The notes: generated by a model from the letters alone, not told the origin. A DNA stretch of 64,000 nucleotides from Myxococcota bacterium (GCA_036012755.1 DASCPX010000189.1:32001-96000); one strand, 5' to 3'; positions 1,628 to 37,563 are shown, counted from the first letter of the stretch. Numbers and translations are program-made.

Positions 1628-2559
1628 TGGACGTTCCCCTCGGTCAGGGAGAGGAAGACCTCCTCGAGATCGGCCTGCAGAGACCGGAACTCGATGACCT
1701 CCAGGCCCCGGGTGATGGCAGCCGCCAGGACCCTCGCGGCTCCCCCCTCGTCCTTCACCGAGAAGACGACCGCGTCCCCGTCGCAGCGCACGTCGTGGAC
1801 CTCGGGCTGCTCGGCGAGGAAGCGCTCGAGCTCTACGGCATCACCGAGGTGGCGAATCGAGAAGACCGGGTCGGGCTGCAGGCGCTTCTGGATGTCGGTG
1901 ACCTTTCCGGAGGCCCTGACGCGCCCTTGCTCGATGACCGCGACGACGTCGCAGATCTCGGAGAGCTCCGTGAGGATGTGGGAGCTGATGAGCACTGCCT
2001 TTCCGAGCTCGTTGGCAAGCACGGCCAGCAGCTCGCGCAGCTCCACCCGGGCGCGGGGGTCGAGGCCCGCGGCCGGTTCGTCGAGGATGAGCAGGGCCGG
2101 ATCGTGGAGCAGGGTCACGGCCAGGCCGGCGCGCTGCCGCATGCCCTTCGACAGGGCCGTGCAGTCCTTGCCCACCAGCGGACCCAGGCCAGTGAACTCC
2201 ACCACGTCGGCGATGGCTTTTCGGCGACCCTTGCCGCGCAGGCCCTGCGCCCTGGCGTGGAAGTCGAGGTAGTCCCCCACCGGCATGTTCGGCTCGGAGG
2301 CGTAGGCATCAGGCATGAAACCCAGCTGACGCCTGGCCTCGCGGGGGTGTGTCAGGACGGAGAGACCACCGATGAGCACGTCGCCGGCGTCCGGGAGGTC
2401 CAAGGTCGCGGCGATGCGCATCGTCGTGGTCTTGCCTGCCCCGTTCGGCCCGATGAAACCGCAGATCTGCCCGGCTTCGACGTGGAAGGAGACATCATCG
2501 ACCGCCTTGACGTCACCGAAGGCGCGGTGCAGCTCGCGGATCGTCAGGGCGCGGCTCAC
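1624..2559 (-). CDS. ABC transporter ATP-binding protein
   Basis: Walker A GPNGAGKTT, signature LSKGMRQR, Walker B LILDEP, H-loop ISSH. Confidence 0.95.
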   Translation of the reverse strand: MSRALTIRELHRAFGDVKAVDDVSFHVEAGQICGFIGPNGAGKTTTMRIAATLDLPDAGDVLIGGLSVLTHPREARRQLGFMPDAYASEPNMPVGDYLDFHARAQGLRGKGRRKAIADVVEFTGLGPLVGKDCTALSKGMRQRAGLAVTLLHDPALLILDEPAAGLDPRARVELRELLAVLANELGKAVLISSHILTELSEICDVVAVIEQGRVRASGKVTDIQKRLQPDPVFSIRHLGDAVELERFLAEQPEVHDVRCDGDAVVFSVKDEGGAARVLAAAITRGLEVIEFRSLQADLEEVFLSLTEGNVQ

Positions 2560-4247
2560 GAGTCCTCCATCACGCCGACCACCCAGTGCTCGCCGGCCTC
2601 TTCCTTCACCTCGACGCCTTCCGTGTCGAGGAAGGGAGAGGTCTCGATGCGGGCGACGTAGGTCCCCACCGGCCAGTCCATCGCGCGGTCGGGCCAGGGC
2701 GAAGGGGTCTTCGTGGCCATCTCGCTTTCCCAGAGCATGGCCAGCTCTGGCTCGAGATCCTCGATTGGTTCGAGGACGGCGCTGTCCCCCTCCTCGAGGT
2801 CCTCGATGAGGAACCAGCCCTCGTCCGTCCTCACGATGGCGGTGAGGATGTCGGCTCCGAGCGCGTTGGCGGCCTCGTCACCGACCAGGTCGAGGCGCTG
2901 GCGTGCGCTGCCCTCGGACAGCACCACCTGTCGCGTCCCGGTCCTGACGGGGGCGAGATCTCCGCCGAGGACACGTCCCTGCTCCCAGGTGATCTGGGGG
3001 TTGAAGTCCCAGTCCGGGGAGACCGGGAAGTGGAGGGTCTCGGCGGCTGGTCGCAGGCCTCCTCGCGGGGAGAAGCCGATGTAGAGCTGGCGCACGTTGT
3101 GGGTGGCCGCCGTGTGTGTGCGCTGGTCGAGCATCGTCATGCTGTGGCTCGCGGTGCGCACGCCGAGGCCGTTGTGTGCGATCCCGTAGCCGACCATCAC
3201 GGCGGTGGAGCTCAGGGCGATGATCGGGGTCGTCGCGAGCAGGCTCGCGGGACGCTTCAGCAGGCGCACGACGAAGGCGTTGACGGGGCCGAGCAGGATC
3301 GCGATGCCGAAGATGAGGAGCGCGAAGGCGCCGCGCGGGAGGTGGCCGACCCCTGGGATCACGGGCAGGGCTCCGGGGTCGTTCCCGGTGGGCCCTCGCG
3401 GGAGGCGGCGGGACAGCGGGCTGCTCCAGGCGGGCTGGACGACAGAGCGGACGATCAGCGGCTGGTCGAGCTCCTCCTCGCTCAGGAATGCGAGCTGTCC
3501 GAGCCCCATCGACCGGCTGTTCAAGCCGGGCAGCAGTCCGGACTCCAGCCAGGGCGTCCAGGCGAAGCGCTCCTCCATCCAGGGCGAGAGCAGATCGTCC
3601 GCCGCGGCGAACCCGGGGCCTTCGTCACCCACGACCACGAGGCTGCCGCCGAGGCGGACCCAGCTCGTGATCGGCTCGAGCTCCTCGCGCGCTGGCGTGC
3701 CGTCGCGGACATCGAGGATGACGAGCCCGAGGCTGCTGTAGGCCCCCTGGTTCTTGGGGAGGTCCTCGAAGCCCACGGCGCCGATCGCGTTGATGTCCGA
3801 CAGCACCAGGCGGTCGACCCAGGCGTAGGTCGAGTCGTAGTCGGGCTCGCTCGCCGAGACGAGGAGCACGCTGCCACGCCCGTCCGTGGAGCGCTCGTAG
3901 GGTCCGATGGACGACAAGGAGGTGATCCAGTCGTTGCCTTCGAAGACGGTGAGCGAGTGCTGGGCGGAGTGGTCCAGGTAGCCGGGCAGCAGGAACTCGA
4001 GGGTGCGACGCTCCCCGGGCTCCAGCACGACGGTGCGGGAGGTGTTCGCCGAGTAGCCATAGGACTCGATCAGCTCGATGCGGATCTCGCGGGTCGCCTT
4101 GGAGCTGTTGTCGACGCGAATCTCGACGGGCACGTAGCCCCGCTCGACCTTCAGCGGCCAGGCGTAGCGACTCTCGATGGCGATGCCGTTGTCGCCGCCG
4201 GAGTAGACCTGCGCCGCCATGGCGCCCGCGAAAAAGGCGAAGAGCAC
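2556..4247 (-). CDS. Exported/membrane hypothetical protein of the MoxR operon
   Basis: 563 aa with an N-terminal signal, a class-I glutamine-amidotransferase-like segment (WVRLGGSLVVVG) and two TM helices (ILLGPVNAFVV). Coupled to its neighbours. Confidence 0.65.
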   Translation of the reverse strand: MLFAFFAGAMAAQVYSGGDNGIAIESRYAWPLKVERGYVPVEIRVDNSSKATREIRIELIESYGYSANTSRTVVLEPGERRTLEFLLPGYLDHSAQHSLTVFEGNDWITSLSSIGPYERSTDGRGSVLLVSASEPDYDSTYAWVDRLVLSDINAIGAVGFEDLPKNQGAYSSLGLVILDVRDGTPAREELEPITSWVRLGGSLVVVGDEGPGFAAADDLLSPWMEERFAWTPWLESGLLPGLNSRSMGLGQLAFLSEEELDQPLIVRSVVQPAWSSPLSRRLPRGPTGNDPGALPVIPGVGHLPRGAFALLIFGIAILLGPVNAFVVRLLKRPASLLATTPIIALSSTAVMVGYGIAHNGLGVRTASHSMTMLDQRTHTAATHNVRQLYIGFSPRGGLRPAAETLHFPVSPDWDFNPQITWEQGRVLGGDLAPVRTGTRQVVLSEGSARQRLDLVGDEAANALGADILTAIVRTDEGWFLIEDLEEGDSAVLEPIEDLEPELAMLWESEMATKTPSPWPDRAMDWPVGTYVARIETSPFLDTEGVEVKEEAGEHWVVGVMEDS

Positions 4248-4250
4248 TTC

Positions 4251-5267
4251 TCAGGCGACCTCGCCCGGGAGGGCCTCTGGGAGCTCGTCGACGTGGGCCA
4301 GCACCGCCTCGGAGAGGCTCCTGCCGTCGTGCCCGTCGAGCTTGCCGCGGTAGTCGACCACGACGCGGTGGCCCAGGGCGTGCGGGGCGACGGTGCGGAC
4401 ATCGTCGAAGCCGACGTTGGGTCTGCCAGCGAGCAGGGCGTGAGCGCGGGCGGCCTCTGCTATGCCGATGGCTGCGCGCGGGCTGGCGCCGTAGCGCACG
4501 TTTCGCTTCACCACGTCCGGGGCACCGGGAGAGCCCGGGTGCGTCGCGTCGACGAGGCGGGCCGCGTAGCGGGCGACGGCCTCTGGCAGGAAGATCGCGT
4601 CCACCAGGGCGAAGAGCTCGTCGAGGTGCTCGGAGTCCGTGACCGGTGTGGCCTCCGGGGGACGTCCGCCGCGGCGCTCGCGGATGATGGTGGTGAGCGT
4701 GTCGGGACCGACGCGGTCGACGGTGAGCTTGAACAGGAAGCGGTCGAGCTGGGCCTCTGGGAGGGGGAAGGTGCCCTCCAGCTCGATGGGGTTCTGGGTC
4801 GCGAGGACCCAGAAGGGAGCTGGCAGGACGTGGGTCTCTCCGAGCACCGTGACGCGGCGCTCCTGCATCGCCTCCAGGAGCGCGGACTGGGTGCGCGGCG
4901 AGGCCCGGTTGATCTCGTCGGCGAGCACGACGTTTCCGAAGATGGGGCCCTTGTGGAAGACGAAGCGTCGCTGCCCGTCCTTCTCCTCCAGCACCTGTCC
5001 GCCCGTGATGTCGCCGGGCAAGAGGTCCGGTGTGAACTGGATGCGGCGGAAGTCGAGGCCGAGCAGGCCGGCGAGGCCCTTGACGAGCTCTGTCTTTCCG
5101 AGGCCGGGCAGGCCCTCGAGCAGCACGTGACCACGGGCCAGCGCGGCGACGACCGTGAGGTGGACCAGCGCCCCCTGGCCGAGCAGGCGCGTGTTGAGAC
5201 CGTCGAGCAGGCCCTTGGCGAGGTGCTGGCCCCGCTGGACGTCTTCGGGGGAGAGCAGGTCGGACAT
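4251..5267 (-). CDS. moxR: MoxR-family AAA+ ATPase
   Basis: GHVLLEGLPGLGKT, RIQFTPDLLPGDITG, VLADEINRA, ATQNPIELEGTFPLPEAQLDRF, GASPR. Confidence 0.95.
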   Translation of the reverse strand: MSDLLSPEDVQRGQHLAKGLLDGLNTRLLGQGALVHLTVVAALARGHVLLEGLPGLGKTELVKGLAGLLGLDFRRIQFTPDLLPGDITGGQVLEEKDGQRRFVFHKGPIFGNVVLADEINRASPRTQSALLEAMQERRVTVLGETHVLPAPFWVLATQNPIELEGTFPLPEAQLDRFLFKLTVDRVGPDTLTTIIRERRGGRPPEATPVTDSEHLDELFALVDAIFLPEAVARYAARLVDATHPGSPGAPDVVKRNVRYGASPRAAIGIAEAARAHALLAGRPNVGFDDVRTVAPHALGHRVVVDYRGKLDGHDGRSLSEAVLAHVDELPEALPGEVA

Positions 5268-6536
5268 CTAGTCGTCTTCCGAGTCTGAGCTGAAGAAGGT
5301 GGCGACGGCGTCGCGGTGTTGAGGAGCCAGGTCCCGGCGCCAGGTGTTGGCGCCGTGGCTCTGGGCGGTGGCGCGGGCGGCGTCGCCCTCTGCGTGGACG
5401 TCGACCTCTGCGTCGGCGAAGGCCTCGCCGAGCAGCATCGTGTGCTCGAGGTCGATGTTGGTGCCAGGTGGCAGGACCGTCGGGGCGAACTGCTCGGAGT
5501 GATCCGCGCGCTCGTCCCCGAACTCCAGCGGAGCGGTGCCCGGGCCGCGGGTGATGCCGCCCTCGCCGGGCTCGCCGTTGGCCAGCGCGAGCGCCATCGC
5601 GTCACCCTCGCACTCCCCGCCGGGCTGATCGCACTGGCCCTCGCCCTCGATGAGCTGGGCGGACTCGAGGCGCACGCGGCCCTCGTCGATGGCTTTCTGG
5701 AGAGCATCGGCCATCGCCTGGGCCTGCTCGGGGCTCATCTGCGGCAGCCCGTCGAGGCCGTCGAGCTTCGAGGCCATCTCTGCGAGCTCCGGCGGCAGCT
5801 TGCGGGTCAGACCGGCCGCTGCGAGCTCCGAGAGGGCCTTCTCGATGGACTCCTGGAGCGGGTCGGTGCCGCTGCGTCCGTTGGCCAGGGCGTCCTCGGC
5901 GCGCTCGGCGGCCTGGTCCAGCTCCTGCGCCAGCTGCTCGAGGCGCTCTTCGGTCGCGTCGACCGCCTCGAGGTTGGCCTCGCTGGCCTCTGTGGCGTCC
6001 GCGAGGTCCTCGATCGTCTCCTCGATCGCCTCGACCTCGTCCTCCTCGATCTCTGCGACCTCTTCGATGGCGTCGAGCTGATCCTCCAGCTGCTCGATGG
6101 TCGCGTCGGGGAGTCCCGCTCCGGGACCCCTCGGCAGGTCGCTCACCGGGATGAGGAAGGCCAGGGCGGAAAAGGCGAGACCGGGGATGGGCCATCTCCA
6201 GGGGAGGCGCATCGTCGGAGTCCCGCTGGCGCTGGCGATCCAGCGCAGGTCGGGCTTCTCCAGCGCGGTGAGGACGCGCCCGTCACCGCCGTCGAGCCAG
6301 GCAGCTGCGGTGCCCTCTGAGACGAAGCGGGTGCGGGCGACGAGCCACGCAGAGGCCGGGACGATCGCCAGCGGCAGGAAGCCGGGCCACCAGGCCTCGC
6401 GCAGCCAGAGCCGGAACATCAGGACGACGGCGCCGACGATGAACAGCGCCACCCCCGTGTGGCGAAGGAGCTCGCCGGTGTAGGCCGCCACGGCGATGCG
6501 GCGCTGAACGAAGCGGACGTGGTCGCGGAGGCTCAC
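5268..6536 (-). CDS. Membrane-anchored acidic coiled-coil hypothetical protein
   Basis: 422 aa: N-terminal TM helices, Glu/Asp-rich coiled coil, GEGGITRGPG motif, C-terminal RDAVATFF. First gene of the MoxR operon. Confidence 0.7.
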   Translation of the reverse strand: MSLRDHVRFVQRRIAVAAYTGELLRHTGVALFIVGAVVLMFRLWLREAWWPGFLPLAIVPASAWLVARTRFVSEGTAAAWLDGGDGRVLTALEKPDLRWIASASGTPTMRLPWRWPIPGLAFSALAFLIPVSDLPRGPGAGLPDATIEQLEDQLDAIEEVAEIEEDEVEAIEETIEDLADATEASEANLEAVDATEERLEQLAQELDQAAERAEDALANGRSGTDPLQESIEKALSELAAAGLTRKLPPELAEMASKLDGLDGLPQMSPEQAQAMADALQKAIDEGRVRLESAQLIEGEGQCDQPGGECEGDAMALALANGEPGEGGITRGPGTAPLEFGDERADHSEQFAPTVLPPGTNIDLEHTMLLGEAFADAEVDVHAEGDAARATAQSHGANTWRRDLAPQHRDAVATFFSSDSEDD

Positions 6537-30680: not shown

Positions 30681-31166
30681 TTACAGCGGCAGGTCCGTGT
30701 CCGGGAAGAACAGGATCTGGATGCCCTTGATGAGGGCGTAGGCGCCGACGACACCGGTGGCGCTTCCGGCGATGCCCCCGAGGAGCGCGGCTCGGGTCGT
30801 GCGTCGCTTGCCGGTCTCCTGGTAGCCGTAGAGGTAGCCGGCCCGGTACTGCTCCTCTCGCTGTTCCCAGGGCCCTGGTTCCGGGATCGGGGGGTTGGAC
30901 GAGGCCGCGACCGGTGGGACGATGCACCCCGCGACCGCCAGCGGCGATCCGCAGATCCCACAGCTGAAGGTGGCGGTGCCGGCGATGACCAGCCCCGCCG
31001 CGCCGCCCAGCACGGCCGGCCTGAGCACGCTGCGCCCCTCCGCGTCCTGGCGCCCATCGACGTAGCCCTGCTCGTACTCTGTGATCGCCCTGGCCGAGCA
31101 CGTCAGCGTGTAGGGATTGGTCTCCGGGAGTCCCGCGAGGGCTCCGCCGACGAGGAGCAGAAGCAT
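30681..31166 (-). CDS. Hypothetical membrane protein
   Basis: 161 aa with a signal, two hydrophobic segments and YEQGYVDG / YRAGYLYGY motifs. Confidence 0.55.
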   Translation of the reverse strand: MLLLLVGGALAGLPETNPYTLTCSARAITEYEQGYVDGRQDAEGRSVLRPAVLGGAAGLVIAGTATFSCGICGSPLAVAGCIVPPVAASSNPPIPEPGPWEQREEQYRAGYLYGYQETGKRRTTRAALLGGIAGSATGVVGAYALIKGIQILFFPDTDLPL

Positions 31167-31216
31167 GCAGGGAAGGCTACTCGGTAATCTCGGCCCATCC
31201 CAAGTCTGGAGCCCCC

Positions 31217-33829
31217 GTGGCCTACGAGAAGTTCACCGTCAAGGCCGTAGAGGCCATCGCAGAGGCTCAGCGCATCGCTGGGCGCCTCGGCAATCCGGAG
31301 ATCAGACCCGCTCACCTCCTCCTGGCTCTTCTGGAGCAGGACAAGGGCGTCGTCCCGAACATCATCTCCCGCGTCGGCGCCGACCCGCGGACAGTGGAAC
31401 AGGGCGCGGCCCAGATCGTGGACGCCCTGTCGAAGGTCAGCGGCGGCGCGAAGGCCGACATGTCTCGCGAGCTGCAGAAGGCGCTCGAGATCGCCGAGAA
31501 GACCTCGCGCCGGTACAAGGACACCCACGTCGCCAGCGAGATGCTCCTGCTGGGCCTCGAGAAGGCCAAGAGCAAGACCAGGCAGCTGCTGCACGATCAT
31601 GGTCTCAGCGAGGATCGGCTCGTCAGCGCGATCGAGGCGCTTCGCGGCGGCCAGAACGTCGACGGCCGAGAGGCCGAGGGCAACTACGAGGCCCTCGAGA
31701 AGTACACGCGCGACCTCACCCAGGACGCTGCCGACGGCAAGATCGATCCCATCATCGGGCGCGACGAGGAGATCCGTCGCACTCTGCAGGTGCTCTCTCG
31801 ACGGACGAAGAACAACCCGATCCTCATCGGCGAGCCCGGTGTCGGAAAGACGGCGATCGTCGAGGGCATCGCCCAGCGCATCGCCAAGGACGACGTGCCC
31901 GAGTCCCTCAAGGACAAGATGGTCCTGTCCCTGGACCTCGCCGCGCTGGTCGCCGGGGCCAAGTTCCAGGGGGAGTTCGAAGAGCGACTCAAGACCGTCC
32001 TGAGCGAGATCGAGAACAGCGACGGCGCCGTGATCCTGTTCATCGACGAGGTCCACATGATGGTCGGCGCCGGAAAGGGCGCCGGCGGCATGGACGCCGC
32101 CAACATGCTCAAGCCGGCGCTGGCTCGGGGCGAGCTGCGCTGCATCGGCGCCACGACGCTGGACGAGTACCGCAAGCACCTCGAGAAGGACAAGGCCCTG
32201 GAGCGGCGCTTCCAGCCGGTGCTCGTCGAGGAACCCAGCGTCCAGTCCACCATCCAGATCCTGCGTGGGATCAAGGACCGCTACGAGGTCCACCACGGCA
32301 TCAAGATCACAGACGACGCCATCCTCGCCGCGGCCCAGCTGTCCCACCGCTACATCGCCGACCGCCACCTGCCCGACAAGGCCATCGACCTCGTCGACGA
32401 GGCAGCCTCGCGGCTGAAGATGGAGATCGAGTCCGTTCCGCAGGAGATCGACATCCTCCAGCGCACCATCACCGGGCGGAAGATCGAGCTCGCGGCGCTC
32501 GCGCGCGAGAAGGACAAGGCCGCGGTCGAGCGCGCGAACAAGCTGCGCGAGGAGATCGCCAACCTCGAGGAGGACACCAAGGGCAAGCGCAGCAAGTGGC
32601 AGGCGGAGCGGGAGCAGATGGAGCGCATCACCGACAGCCGGGAGAAGCTCGAGCAGCTCCAGCACCGCCTCGACGCAGCGACTCGCGGCGGGGACTTCGA
32701 GACCGCCGGCAAGCTCCAGTACGGTGACATCCCCCAAGCCGAGGCGGACATCGAGAAGGCCAGGGGGATCCTCGCCGAGCTGCAGAAGGACGGCGCGGTC
32801 CTGCGCGAGCACGTCACGGACGACGACATCGCCTATGTCGTGTCGAAGTGGACCGGTGTCCCCGTCACGAAGCTCCAGCAGTCCGAGCAGGAGAAGCTCC
32901 TGCGGATGGAGGACAACCTCCACAAGCGGGTCATCGGCCAGGACGAGGCCATCGTGGCCGTCAGTGACGCAGTGCGCCGAGCGCGCGCGGGGCTGCAGGA
33001 CCCGGACCGGCCGATCGGCAGCTTCATGTTCCTCGGCCCGACCGGTGTCGGAAAGACCGAGCTCGCGCGGGCGCTCGCCGAGTTCCTCTTCGACGACGAC
33101 TCGGCGATGGTTCGCATCGACATGTCCGAGTACATGGAGAAGCACTCGGTAGCGCGCTTGATCGGCGCTCCTCCTGGCTACGTCGGCTACGACGAGGGCG
33201 GGCAGCTCACCGAGGCGGTGCGACGGCGCCCCTACAGCGTCGTGCTCCTCGACGAGGTCGAGAAGGCCCACGGCGATGTCTTCAACACGCTGCTCCAGGT
33301 CCTCGACGATGGACGCCTCACGGACTCGAAGGGGCGCACCGTCGACTTCAAGAACTGCGTCCTCATCATGACGAGCAACGTGGGCTCCCGGCACCTCTTC
33401 GAGCACCAGACGGACTACGACACGGCCAAGGCCATGGTGATGAAGGAGCTGCAGGCCCACTTTCGGCCGGAGTTCCTCAACCGCATCGACGACATCGTTG
33501 TCTTCGAGGCCCTCCGGCGGGAGCACATCGACAAGATCTTCTGGATCCAGCTCAAGCGCGTCCAGGCCCTGCTGGCCGAGCGGGATCTGAACATCGAGGT
33601 GACACCGGCGGCGGCGGCGGCGCTCTCGGAAGCTGGTTTCGACCCGGCATACGGCGCGCGACCGCTCAAACGCGCCATCCAGAACTACATGCTGAACCCG
33701 ATGAGCAAGGCCATCGTCGGCGGCGGTTATGGGCCGAAGGACACGATCGTCGTGGACCTCGTCGAGGACGACACGGCTCCGGATGGCAAGATCACCTTCA
33801 CGAGGATTCCATCGCCGCCCGAGGAGTGA
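31217..33829 (+). CDS. clpB: ATP-dependent disaggregase ClpB
   Basis: 870 aa: Clp N-domain, AAA1 (GEPGVGKT), coiled-coil middle domain, AAA2 ([40 protein letters not shown]). Confidence 0.97.
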
Positions 33830-33854
33830 GCGCGCCCGCCCGGGAGGGCCAGCA

Positions 33855-34462
33855 GTGATCGAGACCCTGAATGCAGTCCAGTACGCGCAGCGGGTGCGAA
33901 AGCGCAGCGTCGGGCCAGTGATCCTGGCAGCGGCCGGGAGCGCAAAGGACGGCGCGGCCCGCATCGTCTCCTACTCGATCGTCGGCCACGGCTTGAAGCT
34001 GCTCGACGATCGCCACGTCGAGGCCAAGATCCCCCCCAGATCCGCAAGATCCTCCTCGGCTCGTCCATCGCCACCTGTGACGCGAAGGCCGGGGAGAGCG
34101 CCCGCTGGGTCTGGGCGGAGCAAGGCGACAGCATCATGCTCTGGTCCGAGCTGAAGCTGCGCGTCGGCGCTCGGGCTTCGGGGGTCGAGCTTCGAGGCGC
34201 CACAGGCACCCGCACCATCCCGCGCGCCTCGATCCTGGGACTGAAGGTCGAGGTGAGCGAGATCTGGGACACGGTCCGCGTCATGGCCACGACCAGACAC
34301 GGCCCGGTCGGGCTCGTCGCCAAGACCGACCGCTCGGTGCTGCGGGACCCGGACTACGATGAAGACTCTCTCGTTCGCGACACCTACTGGGTCACGAGCT
34401 TCGCAGAGGCTGTCGCCGACAAGCTGGGCGTGCCGCTCGAGCTGGCGGAGGAGCTTCGTTAG
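33855..34462 (+). pseudogene. Hypothetical protein split by a frameshift at a C7 run
   Basis: GGAGGG RBS and GTG at 33855. One extra C in the run at 34031-34037 would give ...KIPPQIRKILLG... continuing into ORF 34136-34462. Confidence 0.55.
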
Positions 34463-35187
34463 AAGTCCGGGTCGACCTCGACGAGGTTGCCGATCAGCGT
34501 CAGGTTGTCGCCGTTGTCGTACTTGCCCGTGTCGTCGATGAAGCTGAAGTCGCCGATGACGACCACGTCGCCGCCCCAGGCCGGACGCTCTGCCGTTCCG
34601 TAGGTGTAGCGGCTGGAGGTGAACAACGGCGTCGTGCCGTTGACCTCCACGATGCAGGGCTCCTGCAGGTAGACATCGCCCACACCCTCAGTGATCTGGG
34701 AGCCTGCCGTGGCCGGGATGATCTCGGTGGTCTCGGAGTTGTCACCGACGAGCCGGGCGCTGGCTCCCAGCTGCTCCAGCAGCGGGTTGACCGTGCTCCC
34801 CACGCAGTTGCCGACGTCCACCAGCACGATGATCCGGGTGCCAGCCTCCATGGCGTCGGTCAACAGCGCGACGTCGTCCTCCTGCCAGCTGTAGGGCTCA
34901 CGGGAGCCTGGGTCCATGAGGAACACAGCGCGGAACTTGGAGGGGGTGCCGAGGGTGTCACGAGCCTCGACCGCGAAGCCGTAGTGCTCCCCGATCCAGT
35001 CCTCCATGTCGTCGCTGTCGCCGCGCCCGCTCGACTCGCCGGGCTCCCCCCCGTGGCCGTCGTAGAAGAGGACCTTGTTCTGGGTGGGGTAGACGATGTC
35101 GTGTTCGACGGGGGTGCTGTCCTCTCCTCCAGACTCGACGGTGCTGTCGTCCTCGCTGCCGATACACGCGCAGAGCCAGATGAACAC
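34459..35187 (-). CDS. Acidic lipoprotein, GldG/DUF4350-like (class-I GAT-like fold)
   Basis: AGGAGG RBS, MFIWLCAC lipobox, VLFYDGHG, GGDVVVIGDFSFI, DNLTLIGNL. Confidence 0.6.
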   Translation of the reverse strand: MFIWLCACIGSEDDSTVESGGEDSTPVEHDIVYPTQNKVLFYDGHGGEPGESSGRGDSDDMEDWIGEHYGFAVEARDTLGTPSKFRAVFLMDPGSREPYSWQEDDVALLTDAMEAGTRIIVLVDVGNCVGSTVNPLLEQLGASARLVGDNSETTEIIPATAGSQITEGVGDVYLQEPCIVEVNGTTPLFTSSRYTYGTAERPAWGGDVVVIGDFSFIDDTGKYDNGDNLTLIGNLVEVDPDF

Positions 35188-35207: not shown

Positions 35208-36671
35208 CTACCCCGAGCGCAAGACCCGCACGAGCACCTTGCGCAGCTCGTTTGCGTCGATGGGCTTTCCGAGGATGTCGTTCATCCCAGAGGCCAGCGC
35301 TGCTGGCCGCTCGTCCGCCACGCTGCTGGCTGTCACGGCGATGATGGGCAGCTCAGCTCCGGCGGCACGCATGGCTCGGGCGGCGTCGTAGCCGTCCATC
35401 ACCGGCATCTGGCAGTCCATCAGGACGAGGTCGTAGGTGTGGCGGTGGAGGGTCTCGACCGCCTCTGCGCCGTTGTGGGCGTAGCTCACGGTGCAGCCGA
35501 GGCGCTCGACCAGGCGCCCGAGGACGATCTGGTTCACCGGGTTGTCCTCGACGACGAGGACGCGTGGACCCTGGGCCGGCATCCTCGCCAGTCGGTCCGG
35601 AACTCGGATCGCGGCCCGTCCCATCGGCAGCGTGAACCAGAAGCGCGTCCCTCGGCCGGGCGCGGACGAGGCCTGCAGGTTTCCGCCCATCAGCTCCACG
35701 AGCTGCCGGGAGATGGCCAGCCCGAGACCCGTGCCGCCGTAGCGCCGCGTCGTCGAGGGGTCCGCCTGGGAGAATGGCTGGAAGACGCGGGCCATGGCGG
35801 CATCAGAGATGCCGATGCCGGTGTCTTCGACCTCGAAGCGCAGCAGCACGCCGTCGTTGCTGTCGCGAAGGAACTCGACGCTGACCTCGACGGAGCCTGT
35901 TTCGGTGAACTTCAGCGCGTTGCTGACGAGGTTGGTCAGGACCTGACCGATCCGGATGGCGTCGCCACGCAGCGCGTTCGGGACGGCCTCGTCGATGCGG
36001 ATGGCGAAGTCGAGACCTCGCTCCTTCGCCGCGAGCTCGAAGGGACCCAGCACGCGGTCGATGACATCTCGCAGGCTCATCGGCACGCGCTCGACCTGCA
36101 TTCGACCCGCGTCCAGCTTGGCGAAGTCCAGGATGGCGTTGAGCAGCGACAGGAGGCTCTGGCCGGAGTCCCGGACCATCTCCGCGTAGGCCGACTGCTG
36201 TTCGTCGAGCTCCGTGTCCAGGAGCAGATCGGCCATGCCGATGACGCCGTTGAGCGGCGTCCGGACCTCGTGGCTCATGTTGGCGAGGAAGGCGCTCTTC
36301 AGCTCGCTCTCGCGGCGCGCCTCCTCTCGCTCTCGCTCCAGCTCGTGGGTCTGGGTGCGGCGCTGCGTGACGTCCTCGAACACGATGAGCCATGCCCTGG
36401 CGCCGCCCCACTCCACGGGACAGCTTCGTGTGCTGAGGATGCGGGGCTCTGGCCCCCCGACCTCGAGGTCGATGCCGTAGTCCGCGCCGAGATCGAGCGG
36501 GAGGGGCAGACCGGAGAGGGCTCCAGCCTCGACCTCGAGGAGCCGCTCCGAGTAGGGGTTGGCGTACTGGACGCCGCCCTCGCACAGGACGGCCACCCCG
36601 AGAGGCAGGCGGTCGAGGATCTCCAGGTCGGCGCCTGCTGTCATCTTCGGCGGCACGCCAGATTGTCTCAT
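35208..36671 (-). CDS. Hybrid sensor histidine kinase / response regulator with N-terminal PAS-like domain
   Basis: H-box [16 protein letters not shown]-box [22 protein letters not shown], receiver VLVVEDN..LMDCQMP..KP. Start uncertain (36644 or 36671). Confidence 0.93.
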
Positions 36672-36708
36672 GGCAGGCAGCGCCGCCGGCTCTGTGCTAC
36701 CCGAGCGC

Positions 36709-37563
36709 ATGCGCCACGCCGACTACATCGAGGCTGTCGCCGGCTTGCCCGCTCCGGCGCATCTGCGCGCGATGATGGTCTGGCTCGCAGGTCAGGAGCA
36801 GCTGGCCATCGTCGAACCGCAGGCCCGGGCCGGGCTGCACCCACTGCTCGTCCCGCTCGCGCGCTCCGACGAGGGCACGATGGCCTTGTTGAGGTGGCCG
36901 ACCCCACCGAAGGGCCTGCCGATGCCGCTCGTGCTCTGCGGCGAACACATCCGCCTGCTGTCGCTGTCAGTGGACCAGTGGCTCCACCGCCAGCTCGCCA
37001 GACGCGACGCCGCGGGGCTGTCCCTCGGTGGCCTCGGGCGGGTCTGCGAGGACCTCTACGTCCAGGGGATGCTCGAGGCCTCCTCGCTCCCCCTGACGGC
37101 CTATGTGCTCCTGAAGGTGGGGGGGCAGCCGGATCTGTACGAGGAGCTCGCGGCGGCGCATCTCGACGGGGGCGACGAGCTGGCTGCGCTCGTGACCGCC
37201 GACCGCGCGACCACCGCGATCGCCGGTTGGGGGCAGCCGCTGGTCTTCCGCATGCGGCTGCTGGCCCAGCTCGGCCGTGAGGAGGCCGCGAAGGAGGCGG
37301 CAAAGGTCGCTCTCTTGGAGCCGGTCTGGACCTTCGGCGGTCCCTTCGCGCCGGTCGCGGAGATGGCGGGCTGGTCTCAGATCTCGAGCGCGCCCTATCG
37401 CCGACTCGTGGACGACGCGGAGCTGCCCTTGGACCGGGCGGCGCACCTCATGGACGCCCTCGCGGTGGAACAGGGTGACTGGGACGGAGCCCGCGAGGAG
37501 CTCGCCGGGTGCTATCGCCAGGCAGGCCTTGCAGAGCTCGCCGCCTTCGTCAGTTCAGCTTGA
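36709..37563 (+). CDS. Protein resembling the plant chloroplast ATP-synthase assembly factor PAB
   Basis: GLHPLLVPLA, ALLRWPT.P.G..MP, LYxxG, YVLLKVG..PDLYE, HLDGGD..AALVT, GWGQP, GR..AKEAAKVAL..P.WT.G, LDRAAHLMD, CYRQAGL. These are collinear with PAB as recalled from memory. Confidence 0.75.
   Translation: MRHADYIEAVAGLPAPAHLRAMMVWLAGQEQLAIVEPQARAGLHPLLVPLARSDEGTMALLRWPTPPKGLPMPLVLCGEHIRLLSLSVDQWLHRQLARRDAAGLSLGGLGRVCEDLYVQGMLEASSLPLTAYVLLKVGGQPDLYEELAAAHLDGGDELAALVTADRATTAIAGWGQPLVFRMRLLAQLGREEAAKEAAKVALLEPVWTFGGPFAPVAEMAGWSQISSAPYRRLVDDAELPLDRAAHLMDALAVEQGDWDGAREELAGCYRQAGLAELAAFVSSA

Follow-up and report, generated by a model that had tools for sequence, protein, structure and literature searches.

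A PAB-family gene in Myxococcota and its probable ancient link with a chloroplast ATP synthase assembly factor

Can an assembly factor of the chloroplast ATP synthase have a counterpart in a bacterium that is not a cyanobacterium, and if so, what would it do there and in which direction did its gene travel? This question is raised by a stretch of 64,000 nucleotides from a Myxococcota bacterium (GCA_036012755.1, DASCPX010000189.1), which comprises positions 32001-96000 of contig C189 in the genome assembly G000 and is called the window in the following. A preliminary description, made from the sequence alone, had noticed within it an open reading frame (ORF) whose product appeared to be collinear over its full length with PAB of the plant Arabidopsis, short for PROTEIN IN CHLOROPLAST ATPASE BIOGENESIS. 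It had further proposed that this product is an unrecognised bacterial assembly factor of the F1 ATPase, and that such bacteria are a possible source of the plastid protein. The gene and the parts of its product are as follows.

36709..37563, plus strand: PAB-family gene with product P0001, 284 codons and a TGA stop; full-length homology to named PAB
36670..36708, plus strand: putative N-terminal extension of 13 codons, with an alternative ATG at 36670 that gives the 297-residue form P0002
36709..37026, plus strand: N-terminal alpha/beta domain, SUKH/SMI1-KNR4-like, residues 1-106, according to predicted models
37027..37560, plus strand: C-terminal all-helical TPR-like repeat domain, residues 107-284, according to the predicted model and fold searches

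A full-length PAB homolog in a bacterial genome

The homology to PAB can be regarded as established, because the alignments to a named moss PAB and to a homolog from the glaucophyte Cyanophora run from end to end. In BLASTP comparisons, P0001 is 38% identical (E 2e-62) to the Physcomitrium protein named "protein IN CHLOROPLAST ATPASE BIOGENESIS, chloroplastic" (P0180), with residues 3-284 aligned to residues 55-355, and the identity to the Cyanophora homolog amounts to 45% (E 1e-75). A phmmer search of 1.84 billion representatives returned 322 matches at E<=1e-3, of which 177 reached E<=1e-10 and 35 reached E<=1e-30, including P0039 (E 7.7e-49, query residues 2-284), whose cluster contains the Physcomitrium PAB under its NCBI name. 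The full-length collinearity stated in the preliminary description is thereby borne out, and the BLASTP and profile searches which it had suggested as a check did return a significant full-length match to PAB rather than none. Among the relatives with named sources are Physcomitrium, Cyanophora paradoxa, Galdieria, Rhodosorus, Purpureofilum and three Gracilariales, and further Trebouxia, two brown algae (Scytosiphon and Ectocarpus) and one cryptophyte. The family profile is matched by all 220 collected proteins, and the conserved motifs span the full length in both bacterial and eukaryotic members. Judged from these comparisons, P0001 almost certainly belongs to the PAB family.

This family is already captured by the newest Pfam models. 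PF28502.1 and PF28503.1, which are called PAB_middle and PAB_C in Pfam 38.1 (names taken from a protein atlas), are precomputed on 32 of 32 relatives from the indexed search, including P0002, a 90% cluster representative that is 100% identical to P0001 by BLASTP along the entire query and differs from it in one residue of the sequence. The Pfam membership rests on these precomputed hits of P0002. Scans of P0001 with NCBIfam and with a Pfam library that lacks PF28502 and PF28503 assigned no family. The known PAB family thus gains a bacterial member, and the literature searched contained no discussion or mention of bacterial PAB homologs.

The likeness to plant and algal PAB consists in full-length collinearity, in the presence of PAB_middle and PAB_C, and in motifs that are conserved in both domains. 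The differences lie elsewhere. Eukaryotic PAB proteins carry 17-262 extra N-terminal residues, whereas the bacterial protein has no transit peptide, and an insertion of ~12-17 residues before the LDRAA motif occurs in green, red and brown-algal members but is absent in Cyanophora and in all bacteria. The setting differs as well: the known one is the plastid of a photosynthetic eukaryote, while the bacterial host here yielded no reaction-centre gene. Transit peptide and photosynthetic host characterise where the known members occur and do not bear on the fold.

The ORF is a genuine, stably inherited bacterial gene and its product a cytosolic member of the family. This follows from orthologs that are intact in 18 of the 154 species genomes within a single order, from synteny within one of the two families that carry the gene (family f1), and from a host-like guanine plus cytosine (GC) content at third codon positions (GC3). 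An open frame of 334 residues, counted from the first TTG, spans 36559..37563 on the plus strand; the start at 36709 (MRHADY...) aligns with the N-termini of bacterial homologs, and the database form P0002 uses the ATG at 36670, 13 codons upstream. All nine motifs quoted at the outset are present in the translation of 36709-37563, namely GLHPLLVPLA, ALLRWPTPPKGLPMPLV, VDQWLHR, YVLLKVGGQPDL, HLDGGDELAALVT, GWGQP, AKEAAKVALLEPVWTFG, LDRAAHLMD and CYRQAGLAELAAFV. With a GC content of 0.713 and a GC3 of 0.877, the gene falls inside the range of its neighbours (GC3 0.81-0.92; window GC 0.685), in agreement with the host-like composition described before. Neither a transit nor a signal peptide was found in P0001, which begins directly at the conserved core.

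An artefact has nevertheless to be considered, be it algal DNA that contaminates the assembly, an ORF kept open by chance in GC-rich DNA or a pseudogene in decay, as many long chance ORFs arise in such DNA and as the assembly (6.73 Mb, 96% complete, 1.6% contamination) is split into 250 contigs. However, the contig around the gene runs over at least 96 kb and bears bacterial genes including those for ClpB, a hybrid histidine kinase and a GGDEF protein. Synteny is kept in four related genomes and the gene is intact in 18, and the host-like GC3, the missing transit peptide and a predicted fold with a predicted local distance difference test score (pLDDT) of 97 likewise speak against an artefact, which we regard as extremely improbable. 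The host had been described as bacterial and non-cyanobacterial, and this stands: no Photo_RC (reaction-centre) gene was found in the 96%-complete genome, and the contig carries ordinary bacterial genes that are syntenic with those of relatives.

A SUKH-like and a TPR-like domain in the predicted structure

What kind of protein this is can be read from predicted models. In the AlphaFold2 model of P0001, computed from an alignment of 107 sequences (pLDDT 97.3; predicted template modelling score 0.93), an alpha/beta domain made of two helices, four strands and one long helix takes up residues 1 to ~105, and helical hairpins occupy residues 107-282. By sequence, no solved structure matched P0001 at E<=1, and neither did the Pfam models SMI1_KNR4 and TPR at that threshold. 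The whole model retrieved only TPR proteins with Foldseek (E 6e-3 to 5e-2), and in its exhaustive structural alignment (VIA) TPR chains scored between Z 5 and Z 6, with HPF1 at Z 6.4. TPR matches are precomputed by Pfam on the Galdieria homolog, and weak TPR-type matches to positions ~82-238 of the family profile occur in other genomes.

The N-terminal domain, modelled alone (pLDDT 92.2), was most similar to 2icg (Z 6.2), the SMI1/KNR4 protein 3d5p (Z 6.1) and YobK (2prv, Z 5.8), followed by 2pag (Z 4.7), yeast Knr4 (Z 4.6), the immunity proteins Tdi1 (8g0k) and RhsPI (8bd1) (both Z 4.6), and FBXO3 (Z 4.3). The matches at Z 6.2-4.6 cover 89-103 of the 106 residues, and 3d5p was also the first Foldseek match of the domain (E 0.52). 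2icg, 2prv, 2pag and Syd are reported to be members of the SUKH superfamily (Zhang, Iyer and Aravind 2011). Profile comparisons point in the same direction: with hhalign, the PAB family profile matched 30 SMI1_KNR4 domains from the same order at a probability of 79% (E 1.6e-5, 54 columns), and the profile of the N-terminal domain did so at 31%, with 88 columns in register; in the comparison of this domain with SMI1_KNR4, the best hmmsearch E value among 338 ORFs was 0.003. In protein language-model features, P0001 has as neighbours, once its family is set aside, clusters of bacterial proteins with TPR or with SMI1_KNR4+TPR. Myxococcota are the commonest phylum in three of these clusters, and the SMI1_KNR4+TPR neighbours are 100% bacterial, with no role assigned to them.

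It is because structure matches, profile match and language-model features agree that we read the N-terminal domain as SUKH-like. PAB as a whole appears to be a fusion of a SUKH-like with a TPR-like domain, for which the individual lines are weak yet concordant. It counts against this reading that structural scores to SUKH and to TPR proteins are only modest (Z ~6), a range that common arrangements can also reach, and that Z for the N-terminal domain stays under what the aligner rates as safe. From the bacterial SUKH (SMI1/KNR4) proteins the bacterial PAB also remains remote in sequence (~15-17% identity), and it lacks both a Pfam SMI1_KNR4 match and a conserved toxin neighbour, although it resembles them in N-domain fold, in the family profile match and in its SMI1_KNR4+TPR neighbours. 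The genome's own SMI1_KNR4 proteins were set aside, since their architectures are different. According to the models, both PAB domains would be protein-binding modules, with no catalytic features and no enzyme-like domain. The SUKH+TPR reading of the PAB fold was not found in the literature searched; among the literature matches listed, which concerned other subjects, none linked SUKH domains with the chloroplast ATP synthase.

Distribution of bacterial PAB and its link with algae

Within the phylum, the family is narrowly confined. Of 401 genomes in a phylum sample, 40 had a match at E<=1e-3, and only six, including the genome studied here, had a full-length one (E<=8e-90). All six belong to one order, and the remaining 34 matches are short and reach the TPR part only (E 3e-7 to 8e-4). 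The 18 species genomes of this order that carry PAB fall into two families, with six of 21 genomes plus this genome in family f1 and 11 of 49 in family f2; no PAB was found in families f3 (22 genomes), f4 (10), f5 (16), f6 (33) and f71 (2). Presence is consistent within genera (four of four in g6, five of five in g18, two of two each in g260 and g264, and two of two plus this genome in g1). A motif-based scan of one genome per species, covering 185,579 species, gave eight loci, seven of them full-length, and all of these seven coincide with genomes of the same order. They are labelled Myxococcota, Deltaproteobacteria or Proteobacteria; the label "Enterobacteriaceae" of one is contradicted by its GTDB placement. 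Plasmids gave no PAB match by tblastn, and no RNA sequencing run was listed as containing the gene.

With regard to cyanobacteria, no match with a named source was cyanobacterial in any search, cyanobacterial genomes themselves not having been scanned directly. A review calls PAB "specific to photosynthetic eukaryotes" (PMC5224682), which agrees with the preliminary remark that the protein is known from photosynthetic eukaryotes rather than from cyanobacteria.

Some less regular loci may be mentioned here. At L009 (6-143), the eighth locus of the motif-based scan, a 46-residue PAB C-terminus, 57% identical, lies at the contig end of a metagenome-assembled genome of 2.4 Mb that is labelled Phycisphaera; the contig has 57% GC and no neighbours in common with the other loci, and the fragment could represent a second bacterial PAB lineage or a mis-binned contig. 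The metagenome contigs L103 and L104 (6001-6918; 64-66% GC) encode a distant PAB relative with 30% identity over residues 11-230, which was left out of the tree, and L106-L109 (~50% GC) match residues 35-66 only, L106 residues 35-160. At L007 (6354-8861, G112:C19), the PAB frame stays open for 547 codons upstream, giving an ORF of 835 residues. The upstream part has no Pfam family and the homologs begin at the internal Met, and the extension is probably a chance open frame in GC-rich DNA and not a fusion.

How the bacterial and the algal proteins are related was addressed with two trees. A quick one (LG+G4) was built from 128 full-length single-stretch rows, minus P0002 and 14 near-duplicates and plus nine genome-derived rows, 122 in total, and a careful one (LG+C20+F+G4) from a chosen subset of 68 rows (28 bacterial-type, two glaucophyte-type, 16 green, and 22 red or secondary). 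In both trees, the ten rows from bacterial genomes and the unnamed rows with a short N-terminus form one clade, supported by 94 in the Shimodaira-Hasegawa-like approximate likelihood ratio test of the quick tree, by 92/61 in the careful tree and by 923 of 1000 bootstrap trees. At 100/100, and in 1000 of 1000 bootstrap trees, Cyanophora and the unnamed protein P0045 group with this clade. P0045 shares 48% identity with its Cyanophora counterpart and is, by eye, of low GC and rich in Ser, Asn and Lys, which suggests a eukaryotic source. On the opposite side stand the green proteins (100/99) and the red proteins with the secondary lineages (96/89), and the distribution of the insertion before LDRAA agrees with this topology. 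Median patristic distances are 1.70 in the bacterial clade (maximum 3.25), 1.87 in the green and 1.94 in the red one; as the bacterial divergence is thus comparable to that of the green or the red clade, the bacterial PAB is old and was not picked up recently from a plant. The bacterial stem is very short (0.07 in the careful tree). Based on these sequence comparisons, we think that one ancient horizontal transfer very probably links the narrow Myxococcota-labelled group with early Archaeplastida PAB.

The direction of this transfer is a different matter. The tree is unrooted, and midpoint rooting decides nothing because the midpoint roots differ between the quick and the careful tree. A root on the bacterial stem would make the bacteria sister to Archaeplastida, with glaucophytes and then red plus green algae following and no further assumption needed, while a root inside the eukaryotes would make the bacteria a glaucophyte-derived offshoot. 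Two candidate outgroups were tried and rejected: SUKH domains are too distant (~15% identity), and among the 34 weak genome matches, the two inspected are TPR proteins of ~230 residues that match in the TPR part only. The phylogeny that had been suggested for establishing the direction therefore upholds a single ancient transfer and leaves its direction undecided, and the claim that bacteria were the source is not sustained by it, as an alga-to-bacterium transfer fits about equally well with an unrooted tree and a range of two families in one order.

As alternative to a bacterial origin, PAB may have arisen in the ancestor of Archaeplastida and passed from an early alga of the glaucophyte lineage to the ancestor of the two Myxococcota families, which would change only the direction part of the explanation that we favour. 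The bacteria indeed group with glaucophytes at full support instead of standing outside all eukaryotes on a long branch, which is exactly the pattern expected from an alga-to-bacterium transfer. Each of the three primary algal lines has PAB, as do secondary algae with red plastids, and the bacterial gene is confined to two families of one order (18 of 154), with no strong match in the rest of the 401-genome sample. These observations weigh against a bacterial source. A caveat concerns the tree itself, in which only 13 rows bear eukaryote names and ten come from bacterial genomes, the others, including most of the bacterial ones, being labelled by their N-terminal extension and their place in the quick tree, so that the monophyly of "green" and "red" is partly circular. 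On the other hand, divergence within the bacterial clade matches that of the green or the red one, and its stem is very short. The SUKH+TPR build has bacterial look-alikes, many of them in Myxococcota, and SMI1_KNR4 domains of that very order align weakly with the N-domain profile. Genes generally pass from bacteria into plastid proteomes often and the other way seldom, and this also argues against a eukaryotic origin, which we consider quite conceivable while giving it somewhat less than even credence. For a transfer from bacterium to alga our confidence is about even, and we lean only slightly towards it.

Candidate client and proposed role

In plants, according to papers that cite Mao et al. 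2015, PAB binds the gamma subunit of CF1 directly after its folding by the chaperonin (Cpn60) and promotes the incorporation of gamma into alpha/beta, and gamma is the only plant PAB partner named in the passages concerned. By homology with plant PAB, the bacterial protein would most likely act as an ATP-independent assembly chaperone: it would stay with an unassembled client, of which the F1 gamma subunit (AtpG) is the most plausible, up to the point at which that client enters its complex. The genome has gamma as a single copy in a canonical atpA-atpG-atpD operon on contig C87, and the identity of ~40-45% between bacterial and algal PAB across more than a billion years suggests a conserved partner. 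We name gamma as a tentative client, a proposal to which we give slightly less than an even chance.

A similar role is proposed for other chaperones. Atp11 and Atp12 (mitochondria and alpha-proteobacteria) as well as BFA1 and BFA3/CGLD11 (chloroplast) are reported to be ATP-independent holders of single F1 subunits. Atp11, Atp12 and BFA3 bind alpha or beta and BFA1 binds beta plus gamma, whereas the proposed client of the bacterial PAB is gamma. No sequence relation of PAB to these chaperones was seen, no search having been aimed at such homology.

Several results speak against a bacterial gamma chaperone. The preliminary description had noted the absence of atp genes nearby, and this is correct: Pfam scans of the ORFs at 27-47 kb found none, a tblastn search of the window with the AtpA, AtpG and AtpD of this genome gave no match, and the sole gamma gene is the one on C87. 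Genes of F1 are likewise absent from the flanks of nine bacterial genome loci and 13 metagenome loci, of which only two have flagellar FliI ATPases. Of 61 genomes sampled in the order, 58 have gamma, regardless of whether PAB is present, and PAB, as said, occurs in 18 of 154; most relatives therefore assemble F1 without PAB. The gamma subunit of G000 has 289 residues and, going by this length, presumably lacks the chloroplast/cyanobacterial insertion. The proposed bacterial F1 assembly factor thus receives no signal from gene neighbourhood or from co-occurrence.

These same facts can be taken as indication that the bacterial protein belongs to the family but does a different job, as a SUKH-TPR adaptor for another client, such as an immunity-like or regulatory partner or some other complex, and that the gamma role arose only once the gene had reached a plastid-bearing lineage. 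The missing atp linkage and the dispensability of PAB in F1-bearing relatives (136 of 154 without it) would fit such a history. It would also fit that solved SUKH structures are mostly immunity or binding proteins, with YobK (2prv), Tdi1 (8g0k) and RhsPI (8bd1) among the best matches, and that the atlas neighbours are bacterial SMI1_KNR4+TPR proteins of unassigned role. However, an identity of 38-45% together with conserved motifs in both domains is typical of partner retention, no toxin-like neighbour is conserved, and the adjacent EEP-family gene is kept in f1 loci only. We regard a different job as a serious possibility, though one with distinctly less than an even chance.

An alternative client, the F1-like FliI/FliJ ATPase, failed. 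PAB and fliI are 1.2 and 6.6 kb apart in two g18 genomes, and in one of these PAB follows fliF-G-H-I. An ATPase of the type III secretion system (T3SS) or flagellum occurs in 97 of the 154 species genomes of the order, with a T3SS ATPase in ten of the 18 PAB-bearing as against 87 of the 136 PAB-lacking genomes, and one PAB-bearing genome of 97% completeness has none. The flagellar genes lie in order at L008 (fliF-fliG-fliH-fliI, 1857-6482), and at L005 fliI is found with a sigma factor (100-2428).

The immediate surroundings of PAB in the window give no functional signal. The annotated neighbours encode a hybrid histidine kinase, an EEP-family protein, ClpB, a Na/sulfate symporter family protein, a GGDEF protein and an FAD oxidase. 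Synteny holds only within family f1, where ClpB, a putative lipoprotein of 242 residues and the EEP-family gene are common to the loci. Two of these features are the following.

31217-33829, plus strand: ClpB disaggregase of 870 residues (AAA_2, ClpB_D2-small, Clp_N), 3 kb upstream of PAB
34459-35187, minus strand: acidic protein P0223 of 242 residues, N-terminus lipoprotein-like by eye, no Pfam family

ClpB lies near PAB in four loci of family f1 (L002, L003, L032 and L033) and not in family f2, and a longer ORF opposite to it (31103-33964) is spurious. P0223 is kept beside PAB in all f1 loci and is directly divergent from it in L032 and L033. In the window, a CATG palindrome (36708-36711) is common to the ATG of PAB and to the first ATG, which is the annotated start, of the hybrid histidine-kinase ORF that runs divergently on the opposite strand, and the kinase therefore probably begins further downstream. 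The 3' end of PAB overlaps the convergent EEP-family ORF by 14 bases (37550-37563).

Taken as a whole, the explanation that we favour, a cytosolic chaperone of the PAB family with gamma as its client, connected with algae by a single ancient transfer and with a slight lean from bacterium to alga, is in our view evenly poised between being right and being wrong in one of its parts. A bolder version would have a myxobacterium-like lineage build PAB from a SUKH-TPR scaffold as a chaperone of F1 gamma and then donate it to the ancestor of Archaeplastida, where it was retargeted to the plastid; this we consider unlikely. If it were true, a core assembly factor of the chloroplast ATP synthase would be of myxobacterial origin and would stem neither from the cyanobacterial endosymbiont nor from the host, and some bacteria would possess a previously unrecognised assembly chaperone for F1 gamma.

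The plastid biogenesis factor PAB is apparently neither a cyanobacterial nor a strictly eukaryotic invention, and its history involves one ancient transfer with a narrow Myxococcota group. This transfer may serve as a datable marker for early Archaeplastida evolution, with the glaucophytes in the key position. The SUKH+TPR reading would give PAB a structural ancestry, and the compact bacterial ortholog, which has no transit peptide and a fold predicted at very high confidence, offers a tractable protein for solving the structure of PAB and for mapping its client-binding surface.

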